In this document: positions 819-43,253 of the stretch, one piece after another
Position numbering within the stretch: position 1 is the stretch's first letter
Layout of the letters: each line of letters starts with the position of its first letter
Notes under the pieces: generated by a model
What the model was told of the DNA's origin: nothing
Database searches by the model: none
Seen by the model: only the letters and a program-made list of their open reading frames with translations
Source: Octopus vulgaris
Lineage: Eukaryota
Assembly (NCBI GenBank): GCA_951406725.2
Contig: OX597816.1
Coordinates: 14,570,001-14,634,000 of the forward strand
Reading direction: 5' to 3'
DNA length: 64,000 nucleotides
Translations under genes and position numbers: made by a program

Positions 819-908
819 ATCTTACGATCGTTTCACAGAAGAGTTGTCCCTATAATGAAATCCTATATTGATAAGCATTTATAGACAACTCTCCTGCTCT
901 TCAGAGAT
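819..908 (-). ncRNA. Type-I hammerhead ribozyme motif with long stem II, in a Penelope-like end
   Basis: Minus strand: ATCT CTGAAGA [GCAGGAGAGTTGTC...GACAACTCTTCTGT] GAAAC GATC GTA AGAT. The core, stem I (ATCT/AGAT) and a GUA cleavage triplet are all present. Confidence 0.72.
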
Positions 909-2097
909 ATAAAATTTGAATTCTGAATAACATATCGAATGGTAGTTTTGTTTTTTTTTTAATTTGAAGTAAAACTATCAAATAGTGTTTGTTTGAAAGA
1001 TAAATTAAAAATAACTGCTTTTGATAAGAGTCTTTAAATCCATATACACTTCCTTGGTTATTTTTCTGCAATAATCCATAATATTCATGTAAAATCCGTT
1101 AAATTATCTTGTATTCCAAATATAGTTCGTATAGTTTGTTTAGAAATGTGAAATTTGTATATACTTTAGCATGAGAATCTTGAAATTCGTATGTTTTCTT
1201 GGTAATTCCTCTGTAGCAATCCATAATACTTTTGTATAAAATTCATTATATTATCCGTTTATGACATGTTTATGTATGTGTCTTTGTGCTTGTCCTTTCA
1301 CACCGGAGTTGGTTAGTTCACGTCTCCATAACCAAGTGGTTCACCCAAATAATCCAATAAATTAAGTACCAGACTTAAAAAAGAAATCACAACCGGGGTT
1401 CAGTCGTTCGTAAAGGACCAAAAGGTATTACTCTTGTATATGTGTCATGTTTCATGGCTCTTAATATATTATAACTCCTACAACGCAGACGTAAAATAAG
1501 AAACTCAAGTAGTAGAATTTAAGAAGGCCAATGATGGACTCCCCTACGACGAATGGGCTTAGTCAAAATTATATAAATAGGGTGTATTGTAATGTGAGGA
1601 TACAGAACTTTCAATAAAAAATATAAGGTTTCAGACGTGTGTTGAGTTAAGACCAAAACCTTTAAAACTCAAAATTAACTTATACCTGCAATATATACGT
1701 TTTATCTATGAAAAGTAGATTCAAATTTCGTTCTTTTCCCTCCTTGTTGCACGTAAAATTTCTTTATCTCTTATGATATTCTTTACAGACGATCAATCTT
1801 TAATTTTCCCTATTACAATACTCATTACTCTTTACATTAATCACTCATAATCATTATTCACTCAACAATGTGTTGCTGACTATATTCGTTATACCTTCCG
1901 CTGTGTTGTTGGGTTGCTCGCTATTGAATCATGTGGTTATGGGTTCAATTCCGATTTACCCTGCACGGCACCTTGGACAAGTGTTCTTCCTCTATGGCTG
2001 ACCAATGCAATGGAAGTGAATTCAATAGACAGACACTGTGTGGAAACACATATGCATACATGTCTTTGAGCGTCTGCGTGCGCGTATATACATATAT

Positions 2098-2500
2098 ACT
2101 TTGGCATCGAGAGTTACACAAATGCCAGAATTGGGCGCCGCTGCATAGTGCCAAGGACTCCAAATTTGCCATCAAGATGTAGGACAAGATACTGTGATAG
2201 CCTAGGCTTCCGAGGCCCACAGCTCTTCAATATCCTCCCGAAGAACCTGAGAGACGTGCATGGGGTGGATGCAGATGTCTTTAAAATGAAACTGGATATC
2301 TTCTTGTCAGGTGTCCCAGATGAACTAACTTTACGGCAGGAGGTGCAGATGAGGGCAGCTGCATCTAACTCTCTCATGCACCAAATGGCAATTGCTAAAA
2401 AACATTCGTGAAGTAAAATCAAGTAGCAACACCAAATAGCGGTGCCCCAGCATGGCCACAGCTCGTGAGCTGAAACTAGATATAAATATAAATAAAAATA
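2098..2500 (+). mobile_element. CR1-like LINE 3' end (ORF2 C-terminus plus 3' tail)
   Basis: ORF ...SLGFRGPQLFNILPKNLRDVHGVDADVFKMKLDIFLSGVPDE...RAAASNSL, followed by a short UTR with the hairpin CAGCTC-GT-GAGCTG and an A/T-rich tail. Confidence 0.8.
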
Positions 2501-2570
2501 TATATATATATATATATATATATATATATATATATATATATATATATATATATATATATATATATATATA

Positions 2571-2760
2571 AGGGAGAATTCACAAAAAAAAACACGAAGA
2601 CAAGTGGTGTAGGCAACAAACAGATGTATTCGTATAACGCTCGGGAAGTGAAAAAGTTTTTAACGTTTCGAGCCTAGGCTCTTCCACAGAAAGGAACACA
2701 AAAATGAAACAAGGAGAGAAAATAAAGTATGTGTAGTGGCTAGCGATCTATCATGGCGAA
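2571..2760 (-). mobile_element. Penelope-like end, family P1, with minimal hammerhead-like motif at 2657-2693
   Basis: Minus strand CTTT CTGTGGA A GAGC-CTAG-GCTC GAAAC GTTA. It is homologous to 11688-11885 and 36229-36417 and lies between (TA)n tracts. Confidence 0.65.
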
Positions 2761-2857
2761 TGATATATATATATTTATATGTATGTGTATGTGTGTGCAT
2801 ATATATATATATATATGTGTGTGTGTGTGTATATACATACATATATGTATATATATT

Positions 2858-3088
2858 CTTTTATTATATGCTTCAGCCCTGAGCTGTGGCCATGCTGGGG
2901 CACCGCGAGTGTAATTACCCTTTAATTGGCCAATTCTATGGGATTGGATTTTGGTGAATGATGGGGTTCGATACTGCTGCCCTCTTTTATGTTCCCTGCA
3001 TTGATATTGGTTTATCTGGAATCTTGGACAACAAGACGTCAAGTTGTTTCTTGAAAGCATCTACTCCATGGAGATCCCTCAGATGCTT
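2858..3088 (-). mobile_element. Second, diverged CR1-like LINE 3' end
   Basis: Minus translation KHLRDLHGVDAFKKQLDVLLSKIPDKP...RAAVSNPIIHQ with an internal stop, then the same tail GCGGTGCCCCAGCATGGCCACAGCTCAGGGCTGAA. Confidence 0.75.
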
Positions 3089-40317: not shown

Positions 40318-40449
40318 TATATATATATATATATATATATATATATATATATATATATATATATATATATATATATATATATATATATATATATATATAT
40401 ATATATATATATATATATATATATATATATATATATATATATATATATA
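40318..40449. repeat. (TA)n microsatellite
   Basis: Direct reading. Confidence 0.98.
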
Positions 40450-41464
40450 GGTGCGTTTAAAACTCTTAGGATATCCGTTTTTCTCATGCCAGAATGAAAC
40501 ACATTCATGGATACATACATCGTATGTATATATATATATATATATGTATGTGTGTATACATACATAGATATATATATATATATATATATATACATGTATG
40601 CACAAATACACATACAGAGGCACACACAACCTACTAACACACGTATACGCACATGTTTTATTTTTAAATTCTTTATCCGTTAAATCCTTCGATTCACAGG
40701 CTCTACTCTCAGGTGATAAACATACCAATACCCCGTGTGACCTCAATACCTGGAAAATATTTCTGACTATTTACTATTTATTACTTATTTATATATTTAC
40801 TTATTTATTTATCCAGTTATGTTCGCTTTTTCTTATCAAAACATGCATCCTCGCACATCCCCCTCAACACGATAGCGGAGATCCTCTTACATAACCTGAG
40901 GTTAAAAGCTGCAGTATTATGATATTCTGGGCGGTCGTAAATCTATCCATCTGTTTAGAAAAATGATACCCAGATCATCACCACTAAAACTACTGCCATT
41001 GCCAACGACCACCGTCAACAATCATCACCACCGTTACCATCTCTACCACCAGCCATCAAAATCATCACCGAAACAATTAACCACCGCCACCAACAACAAT
41101 AGTTACCGTCACCACTCTTGTAGCACCAAGGCATCCTTATCAATTCTATCCTTTATTACAATGACCGATCACCTTACTCCATCCTTTACTGATAATAATA
41201 ATAATAATAATAATAATAATAATAATAATAATAATAATAATAATAATAATAATAATATATTTTATCTGTGAATTTGCGCGTGTAATCTGGGAATGCATTC
41301 AATGCCCTTCTCTGCCCTAGATGTATGGAAAACACTCGGCGAGAAACGAAAGAAAATTTGAAGAAAGAAGGAAAAAACATAATAATAATAATAATAATAA
41401 TAATAAATATTGTTCTGATGCGGTACCAGGTAGTGGCTTTCATGTTATCATGTACATTGTTTTG

Positions 41465-41800
41465 TTTTGCCTTTCATCCTTTTGGGGTCGATTAAATATG
41501 TACCAGTTATGCACTGGGGGTCGATGTAATCGACTTAATCCGTTTGTCTGTCCTTGTTTGTCCCCTCTATGTTTAGCCCTTTGTGGGTGATAAAGAAATA
41601 AACGTTAGCATGCCGGCCAAAATACTTAGCAGTATTTCGTCTGTCTTTACGTTCTTAGTTCAAATTCCGCCGAGGTCGACTTTGCCTTTCATCCTTTCGG
41701 GGTCGATAAATTAAGTACCAGTTACGTACTGGGGTCGAGCTAATCGACTGGCCCCCTCCCCAAAAATGTCGTGCCCTATGCCTAGAGTAGAAAAGAATAT
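41465..41800 (+). mobile_element. SINE A partial dimer
   Basis: Two central domains in tandem, the second with an alternative tail. Confidence 0.8.
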
Positions 41801-42865
41801 TCGACTTGTTCGTTTTCTAAATACTAAATTGTGAAGATTTCTGATTTCTGAATATAACACACTTGTCTTTTTAAACATAGAAAACAATATTTTCTTCATA
41901 TTCTGTACTTGGTTTAATTCTTTCGATGGAGTAGAGTCCCTGTATATGACACTGTATAGAGTTTAAAGTATTGCAGCATTAAGGTGACTGAGAAACTGCA
42001 ACCAGTTCAACTTAAGTTTCAGTATAGGTGTAAGCACATTCGAACACTTAATAATAACCTACAAGCGCAGCATCCTGTCAAACTTCATTGAAAAATTCGC
42101 CTCTGAATCCTAGCTGTGGGTGTCCCATCTTTATTATGGATTGCCTGTCTTAAAACACTATAGAAATGAATATTTCCTTAACGCAGAAATAAAAATTGGT
42201 CGTAGCAGGAACACGAGTGACACTTATGTTTCTCTAGGCAGAATTAATTTGACAGAAGTCATCCTTCTTCCAGTTAAATTCACAGAAAAGGGCGATATCA
42301 AATTAAAGAAATGGTCATCAATCTTACGGAAGTGAATTGCTGCTTCTACCTTGCGATATCTACTACAGATATGTCGCTTTAACAGAATCTCGTGACTATA
42401 AACACAGGACAACTCCAAGTAAAGGACACAAATACCTGCTCCTTTTGCTAGAAATTCGACGTCTTTTTAACCGCCTATACGCAGTTGCATCCACGTATAT
42501 GAACTCTACTGGAGTTGAAAAATTTGGTGTTAATTGAAACAAATTCATTACAGAAAGACAGTTAATACATAAAGTCTTATATCAACCAGGAAAACAACAG
42601 AATAAACCATATTTTTCTGGAATCTGTTTTTTTTTTTAATGTTTAGTCAAGGACAGAGGGGCAGCGCCTGTGACCCGTTCCAATGTTTTTGAGACTTAGG
42701 GTGGAGAGAGAAAATTATCTACAGGTCGGTAATCTGGTTCGAATAGTTGCAATAATCTGCCAAAGGTACCAAAAAGCTAGATGGGATGATAAACCTATAT
42801 ATATATATATATATATATATATATATATATATATATATATATATATATATATATGTAAATATAAT

Positions 42866-43120
42866 ATGTGACAATTATTCGCTAGCCTTGATAAAACTCC
42901 GAGTTTCGGATGTCGGGCGGAAACCCACGTCACCATCTCTTCAGCTATCCAGCCATCGAAAAAATGCTGAAGAGATGGCGACGTGGGTTTCCGTCCCGAC
43001 ATCCGAAACTCGGAGTTTTATCATGGCTACCGAATAATTGTCACATTTTACAGATAAATTCCTCTATTTACGTAATATCGAGGTCTCTTTCATTCTTTTG
43101 TTGTTTTGCCATTTCTATGA
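42866..43120 (+). mobile_element. Penelope-like end with inverted pair of hammerhead-like motifs
   Basis: Arms at 42866-42945 and 42966-43046; CTGAAGA GATG...CATC C GAAAC TCGGA GTT; adjacent to (TA)n. Confidence 0.62.
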
Positions 43121-43130
43121 ATATATATAT

Positions 43131-43253
43131 GTAGGTCCCGGGTTGAGTCGGGGTTAACCACAGTAAATAAGGTACTCAATACATAGCAGAGTAAATTAAT
43201 TTATTTTATAGAAGGAGCTTCTATAGGACTAGAACTGTTTCATTCAAAAGAAT
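43131..43253 (-). mobile_element. Truncated second copy of the 18577-18710 Penelope-like end
   Basis: Near-identical reverse complement of about 18588-18710, truncated within the hammerhead stem II and flanked by TA repeats. Confidence 0.75.

Follow-up and report, generated by a model that had tools for sequence, protein, structure and literature searches.

Hammerhead-bearing cassettes, very probably ends of Penelope-like elements, in a large intron of Octopus vulgaris

We analysed a 64,000-nt stretch of the Octopus vulgaris genome (C3:14570001-14634000 of a 2.8-Gb genome in 227 contigs; 36% G+C), here called the window, which is dense in microsatellites (143 tandem-repeat rows) and lies mostly within one intron of a host gene. 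It contains 16 minimal type-I hammerhead motifs at 13 sites, belonging to eight families. The short cassettes that carry these motifs are very probably end pieces, or pseudo-long terminal repeats (pLTRs), of Penelope-like elements (PLEs) inserted in (TA)n and copied mostly from uncut RNA. A further proposition, on which our judgement is evenly balanced, is that these ends hold a fossil record of ribozyme action: a few percent of the roughly 10^5 ends in the genome would begin at the scissile bond, having been copied from templates cut in the germ line.

Hammerhead motifs and their families

All 13 sites had been named in a reading of the letters alone (the sequence-only reading), and a motif was present at each. 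A descriptor checking stems I to III returned eight compact matches in the window, compared with a mean of 0.175 (maximum 2) in 200 local shuffles that kept dinucleotides in 100-nt blocks, and nine matches scoring ≥9, compared with 0.43 (maximum 4). The motif is thus far commoner in the real window than in shuffled sequence, the comparison suggested by that reading. Detection depended on an extra nucleotide after A9 (position 9.1), as a descriptor lacking it missed most motifs; in families F1, F2 and F6 this nucleotide is an A, accompanied by a G10.1-C11.1 pair. Two chance matches (7661-7734 and 56469-56526), with long weak helices and scores within the shuffle range, were dropped. Type-I topology was kept in every parsed motif and the palindrome fraction of helix III ranged from 0.67 to 1.00 in 15 of 15, which bears out the claim of minimal type-I hammerheads with a palindromic helix III. 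The Rfam covariance check proposed with that claim did not call the motifs as hammerheads: none reached the gathering score in the window, and none at E ≤ 10 was among the matches listed (150 of 412). Because these minimal forms lack the canonical helices, the miss weakens only the Rfam label.

Canonical CUGANGA and GAAA boxes were found in 7 of the 16 motifs, the other nine carrying one change in box 1 (U4C in five, A6U in three and U3 opposite G8 in one). According to the accessible text of Perreault et al. (PMC3088659), A6C has low activity, and U4C has much reduced activity in vitro yet sustains a viroid.

Self-comparison of the window defined the eight families, which upholds the number given in the sequence-only reading (at least seven) and not its description of them as unrelated, since F1, F2 and F6 align across the ribozyme. 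F1 has three window copies, all with A6U hammerheads: 2530-2760 (-; hammerhead 2657-2693, in (TA)n), 11688-11886 (+; 11750-11787) and 36230-36425 (-; 36317-36352). F2 also has three, of which 3670-3880 (+; 3742-3776) and 19560-19776 (+; 19640-19674) are U4C, and 29712-29915 (-; 29811-29845), antisense to the host gene, has a canonical core. Their relative F6 (25200-25235, +) has U3 opposite G8 and a GGAC/GUCC helix II. F3 comprises a U4C cassette at 14899-15037 (-; hammerhead 14997-15036) and a foldback at 36466-36690 (arms 36466-36628, tail to 36690), both copies of which combine U4C with damaged GAAA boxes. The F4 cassette at 17250-17480 (-) has canonical boxes, a 6-bp stem I and a palindromic helix III (ribozyme 17396-17449, the base of helix II decayed), and an F4 3' piece without ribozyme lies at 18043-18114 (-; 94% match to 17250-17321). 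F5 is represented by a foldback at 18511-18710, with 66-bp inverted arms, a canonical hammerhead on each strand and a 68-nt tail on the plus copy, and by a copy at 43121-43252 (-) that starts within helix II and lacks the CUGAUGA box. The F7 foldback at 42862-43120 (arms 42862-43050, tail to about 43120) has canonical boxes, stem I being intact on the minus copy and lost on the plus copy. Finally, the F8 hammerhead at 819-908 (-), also antisense to the host gene, has a canonical core, a long helix II, an 8-nt palindromic helix III and a 5-bp stem I, with its predicted cut after position 823.

A profile built from six window copies, with no use of structure, recovered 51 homologues in 944 kb (the window, eight neighbours and 80 evenly spaced samples, none chosen by homology). 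Among these, helix II and GAAAC were 93-96% conserved by column, compared with 70% in the upstream and 82% in the downstream flank. The stem-I closing pair is C-G in F1 and G-C in F2, and helix II carries double changes in F6 (GGAC/GUCC). Covariation, which the sequence-only reading had named as a check, is therefore present across families, though with few independent events. In F1-type copies, U or C occupies position 6 almost throughout, whereas all four letters are found at position 7; A6 was thus lost long ago, and several subfamilies inherited the loss. Such a persistent lineage lacking A6 appears to be newly described here. In F2, the difference between U4C (3746, 19644) and the canonical core (29841) is a CpG/TpG difference, and old CCGA copies could have regained CUGA through methylation decay; most CUGA copies also have other subfamily letters in common.

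The three sites read as double in the sequence-only reading (F3, F5 and F7) are inverted pairs with ribozymes on opposite strands, in foldback hairpins of -105.9, -95.1 and -142.6 kcal/mol. Hence, these pairs are not usable as tandem dimers in one RNA; Lunse and colleagues reportedly described, in 2016, small PLE hammerhead variants cleaving as dimers. Further foldbacks with no detectable hammerhead were observed at 11067-11202, 17994-18194, 18268-18475, 26729-26921 and 39884-40076. Homologues of those at 11067 and 18268 adjoin hammerhead-bearing copies in three genomic loci (L191, L112 and L118), so the hammerhead-less foldbacks are probably truncated PLE ends that stop downstream of the ribozyme.

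Coding parents, ends and insertion

The F1 cassette at 11688-11886 was the query that led to a Neptune-type parent. Two F1 matches extend upstream, and a search with that extension yielded 30 long loci, at least 11 of which have a same-strand GIY-YIG end 0.4-1.7 kb upstream of the hammerhead. Locus L116 has an RVT_1 match (E 1e-7), a C-x4-C-x2-C linker and a GIY-YIG nuclease, and the frames of L080 and L116 both run from reverse transcriptase (RT) through a CX2-5CxxC linker to a C-terminal GIY-YIG (E 0.0015 for GIY-YIG, below the Pfam cut-off). On this motif layout of RT, zinc finger and GIY-YIG, by which the clade is assigned, we read F1 as the ends of a Neptune-type PLE. The proposed Penelope origin and the expected GIY-YIG/RT-coding parents were thus both found for this family. 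Short and long F1 copies have the cassette sequence in common, so the non-autonomous mini-elements invoked in the sequence-only reading are not needed for F1; for F2, no long copy was seen.

Among 150 scored GIY-YIG matches in the genome, many lie in open frames of 781 aa, and open-frame PLEs are flanked by direct repeats with a U3-A8 hammerhead. Autonomous PLEs are thus young and abundant in this genome. One young PLE family (L111-L114, e.g. L111 930-6172) combines open 781-aa RT/GIY-YIG frames and a U3-A8 hammerhead with 300-456-nt direct terminal repeats and an upstream frame-like region. For F5, itself a young family (98-99% identity), 1 of 12 extended loci (L352) has a same-strand Hydra-type frame with a CxCX5C linker and GIY-YIG 2.4 kb upstream, across a microsatellite-like stretch; the F5 parent is probably a Hydra-type PLE. 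Hydra-clade-like frames were observed at L351 4600-6270 (-) and L352 2550-3850 (-), one of them with its own long-helix-II hammerhead. Two parent candidates were rejected, namely the L351 Hydra-type fragment, which carries its own different hammerhead, and a GIY-YIG end near F7 (L366), which is on the opposite strand. No PLE protein match was found inside the window itself.

The ends of the cassettes are regular. The 3' end is fixed about 110 nt past the cut site and abuts a TA-type microsatellite; among the top matches, 30 of 30 for F1 and 29 of 30 for F2 pass into a TA/CA microsatellite there (judged by eye, window copies included), in agreement with the (TA)n boundaries noted from the letters alone. 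On the 5' side, F1 and F2 copies stop sharply, about 95-115 nt before the cut site. None of 26 F1 copies in the 944 kb passed -115, even with a reference extending to -308; of 19 F2 copies, 11 began at -101 to -111, the F2 reference itself stopping at -111. Inverted pairs have a tail of 60-70 nt on one copy. A query with the F5 tail only found 30 loci, 27 of which could be oriented: 16 have their foldback at the ribozyme's 5' border and one within helix II, seven extend upstream, and three stop inside or downstream of the ribozyme. Both F5 arms carry the private changes of their copy, which indicates that the inversion was made at insertion. An inherited hairpin master for the F5 palindrome was rejected, as the junctions vary and the arms have private changes in common; identical centres in 40 of 40 copies under another query reflected a bias of that query.

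These features suggest an insertion mechanism in which the element's RT would begin about 70-110 nt downstream of the ribozyme and soon run off the 5' end of its RNA template, mostly uncut, leaving a short end piece whose sharp 5' limit would mark the transcript start. By analogy with a PLE of the green anole, the endonuclease may nick AT-rich DNA on both strands, and the use of two internal start sites by RT may yield a tailed copy and a shorter inverted one. For that element, the accessible text of Frangieh et al. (PMC11167929) describes nicks in the two strands of AT-rich DNA, a pair of internal RT start sites downstream of the hammerhead, and uncut RNA as the main template. PLEs also have an internal promoter, according to the accessible parts of two further papers (PMC2377424; PMC6765202). 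Folding of the ribozyme would need a partner RNA or the element's protein, and a minority of RNAs would be cut, copies from these starting at the scissile bond. The copies in the host intron are probably passengers without effect.

Several points weigh against this account of the cassettes. A parent frame was found only for F1, plus F5 at the single locus across microsatellite-like sequence, and no same-strand coding frame was found for F2, F3, F4, F6, F7 or F8 in the loci examined; the anatomy of these six families (foldback, tail, TA target) agrees with an endonuclease-positive (EN+) PLE. Moreover, a strong RT stop would yield the same 5' limit as a transcript start.

Junctions at the predicted cut site

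We collected 5' junctions by genome-wide pattern searches for microsatellite-to-element joins and hand-tallied the unique loci among the matches listed, that is, among the first 100 per pattern, which lie on chromosomes 1-5 at most; all junction counts below are among these. For F2, 33 loci were listed and two dropped (a duplicate and a match elsewhere in the element). Of the remaining 31, 17 join at +1 to +4 relative to the cut site, compared with 14 at -27 to -1 (p 3e-8). The sequence AAAC occurs at both +1 and -7, and these identical sites had 16 F2 junctions and one, respectively (p 0.0003). When 42 F2 loci were tallied further downstream, eight junctions fell at +1 to +3, 13 at +4 to +8, eight at +9 to +13, eight at +14 to +18, three at +19 to +24 and two upstream. 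For F1, 30 loci (31 with one duplicate dropped) gave 13 junctions at -2 to +4 and 17 at -27 to -3, with a weaker matched control (9 vs 2; p 0.065). In the 944 kb, a start no more than 3 nt from the cut site was seen for 1 of 19 F2 and 1 of 26 F1 copies, so starts at the site concern a few percent of copies. As far as genomic sequence can speak to it, the step at the scissile bond, clear in F2 and weak in F1, is a hint that cleavage takes place in vivo, and run-off from cut RNA followed by trimming explains both the step and the shoulder downstream.

Against a record of ribozyme cutting stand several observations. When the +1/-7 pair is left out, since T-A microhomology favours +1, the F2 contrast shrinks to 9 vs 1 (p 0.02). 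With 37 of 42 loci between +1 and about +18, the junctions make a broad shoulder rather than a sharp peak. F1 shows a step too although it lacks A6, and the steps of F1 and F2 do not differ significantly (p 0.20). Within the core, conservation is lowest in box 1 (78%), and stem I had a pairing probability of at most 0.24 as a monomer in all 15 motifs folded. Finally, according to the accessible text of Frangieh et al. (PMC11167929), RNA-seq of the anole element revealed no ends at its cut site.

A serious alternative, which we hold to be possible without favouring it, is that nothing is cut in vivo and that the excess of junctions comes from RT stalling at the folded motif or at a pyrimidine tract, together with (TA)n microhomology. 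The high junction density throughout +1 to +18 and the step in F1 despite its missing A6 are what stalling would produce, and 9 of 16 cores being off consensus, as well as the unchanged in vitro insertion of catalytic mutants of the anole element and its lack of RNA ends at the site (PMC11167929, accessible text), suit an absence of cutting. However, a stall at stem I predicts ends 3' of it, from +5 onward, whereas +1 to +3 is as dense as +4 to +8 (8 vs 13 loci over 3 vs 5 nt); junction density falls exactly upstream of the scissile bond, and the identical AAAC 8 nt upstream has a single junction against 16.

We consider it rather doubtful that some families, chiefly F2, propagate on their own as non-autonomous mini-elements that have a separate start site and are moved in trans by PLE protein. 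Non-autonomous PLE derivatives are on record (PMC8557442, accessible text), F2 has sharp ends, and no long F2 copy was seen among the top 30 matches or among the 19 copies of the homology-free sample. F1, by contrast, has equally sharp ends and yet long coding copies with the same cassette sequence, and F2 offered no upstream sequence with which to look for a parent.

Should cleavage at the scissile bond be real, the junctions would be evidence, readable per family, of in vivo cleavage by the minimal PLE hammerheads of metazoans, including lineages that have long been running with U4C or without A6.

Host intron, related systems and genomic scale

Window positions 1-62540 (+) contain every cassette and are part of an 85,173-nt intron of a coiled-coil gene with a SOGA domain (PF11365). 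The exon at the 3' border of the intron (62541-62923, +), the sole host exon detected in the window, is 98% identical to an Octopus sinensis protein and is spanned by a contig with zero mismatches. Contigs from 4 of 4 runs (one study; presumably RNA) splice an upstream exon ending at L127:7367 directly to window position 62541, and this upstream exon has a Pfam SOGA match (E 1e-17). These spliced contigs establish 1-62540 as a portion of one plus-strand intron, and the supposition that the window was a single intron is borne out to that extent. The O. sinensis protein record starts at the window exon, while the contigs add the large upstream SOGA-domain exon (L127:5985-7367); the record may be a truncated model or a different isoform. 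Antisense within the intron lies a full-length copy of the U6 small nuclear RNA (55296-55401, -; 90.7 bits).

Seven copies are sense to the host gene: four are solo, each with a variant core, and the other three lie within hairpins (-95 to -143 kcal/mol). Canonical cores among solo copies, three in all, occur only in antisense (0 of 4 sense vs 3 of 6 antisense; p 0.17, not significant), and 80 kb of neighbouring sequence held just four more matches. Cutting of the host pre-mRNA, which the sequence-only reading had raised as possible, is not supported as a likely outcome: 7 of 7 sense copies are variant or bound in a long hairpin, and spliced contigs bridge the intron. Cutting of consequence to the host is therefore unlikely, though some may occur at a low level. 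In keeping with this, we think it very improbable that the SOGA-gene pre-mRNA is a target of cutting or regulation by sense copies, whether singly or as heterodimers via the ACGU palindrome they share. Such a role could draw on seven sense copies in one intron, four of them with an identical ACGU helix III, and on the exclusively antisense orientation of solo canonical cores, as expected under selection against cutting; every sense copy, however, has U4C, A6U or U3-G8 or sits in one of the hairpins, the intron is bridged in all four runs, and the sense copies lie kilobases apart and diverge like neutral repeats. The large number of ends in this genome places several sense ribozyme-like motifs in one large intron, so the strand bias of intact cores can test host cost.

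The kind of element described here is already published. In the accessible text of Cervera & De la Pena (2014; PMC4209133), the minimal hammerheads of metazoan PLEs are type I with a 4-5-bp stem I, an extra nucleotide between 9 and 10.1, a G10.1-C11.1 pair, a palindromic helix III and a U3-A8 variant, and thousands of single motifs derive from truncated PLEs, some in close opposite-strand pairs. As the kind is known, the finding is ordinary for a PLE-rich animal. Apparently new here are the copy number of about 10^5 per genome (extrapolated), the lineage lacking A6 and the junction step at the cut site. The examples in that text number 2,000-9,000 copies, whole octopus lineages carry U4C or A6U/A6C, and no junction step and no octopus are mentioned in the part of that paper available. 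The accessible text of Craig et al. (2021; PMC8557442) describes Neptune- and Hydra-clade EN+ PLEs with C-terminal GIY-YIG, (TA)n targets, an inverted truncated copy, a tail and a hammerhead in the pLTR; the CX2-5CxxC linker of the F1 parent and the CxCX5C linker of the probable F5 parent match those given there. Unlike these elements, with tails of 30-40 nt, the octopus copies have tails of 60-70 nt and are mostly ends of about 200 nt with a sharp 5' limit, assigned to a clade by motifs alone. With Poseidon of the green anole (Frangieh et al. 2024; PMC11167929, accessible text), which belongs to another clade, the octopus elements, known from sequence alone, have in common an AT-rich target and, under the insertion mechanism proposed above, the internal RT start downstream of the hammerhead, extension of both strands and a mainly uncut template; genomic junctions step up at the cut site here, whereas no RNA ends were reported there. 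An octopus repeat annotation has active Penelope families, and its main text, so far as accessible, does not contain "ribozyme" or "hammerhead" (PMC13282606). In a literature search largely without subscription papers, we found no publication on hammerheads in octopus or cephalopods, nor on truncation at the cleavage site.

Non-LTR (long terminal repeat) retrozymes (Cervera & de la Pena 2020; PMC7229834, accessible text) are likewise small non-coding units with type-I hammerheads and ties to PLEs, and they form head-to-tail arrays with mostly canonical ribozymes, unlike the solo or inverted PLE ends in octopus. That our cassettes are such retrozymes, replicating as small circular RNAs, is the least credible explanation and the retrozyme-like units of the sequence-only reading are not upheld, for despite their 130-250 nt, type-I hammerhead and lack of coding capacity, the window has no head-to-tail array or same-strand tandem copy of any family, the pairs are inverted, the ribozymes are minimal rather than canonical, and F1 is contiguous with a coding element.

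A strict descriptor applied to 80 evenly spaced 10-kb samples (800 kb) gave 37 matches, compared with a shuffle mean of 6.75 (range 1-12; 20 shuffles), that is, about one excess match per 26 kb on genome average (a lower bound) and an extrapolated total of about 106,000 excess motifs. The density of one per 4 kb in the sequence-only reading holds for the window. For F1/F2-type ends, a few without ribozyme, the 39 counted in 800 kb correspond by extrapolation to about 137,000 in the genome, and the six F1/F2 copies in the window are about twice the mean (3.1 expected; p 0.10, not significant). The axolotl has up to about 120,000 motifs, according to the accessible parts of PMC7229834 and Li et al. 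(2026; 10.64898/2026.07.22.740005).

Other repeats share the window. A 455-nt repeat (50931-51385 and 62943-63393; 94.5% identical), with terminal inverted repeats of about 30 nt and internal (CCCTAA)n, looks like a non-autonomous DNA transposon. A repeat of about 640 nt with (TAA)n/(TAT)n flanks has four copies (21646-22287, 22247-22690, 23790-24443 and 48868-49529). Units of ~235 nt (about 15 copies, e.g. 8251-8668 and 24662-24903) and of ~400 nt with an internal microsatellite (about 12 copies, e.g. 25430-25840) are two very abundant interspersed repeats, putatively akin to short interspersed nuclear elements by size and number.

The function of PLE hammerheads has been called unclear (Craig et al., PMC8557442, accessible text). 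In octopus, tens of thousands of genomic copies have 5' junctions on which cutting in vivo can be tested directly and by computation alone, and the first junction tallies point toward a minority of templates being cut.

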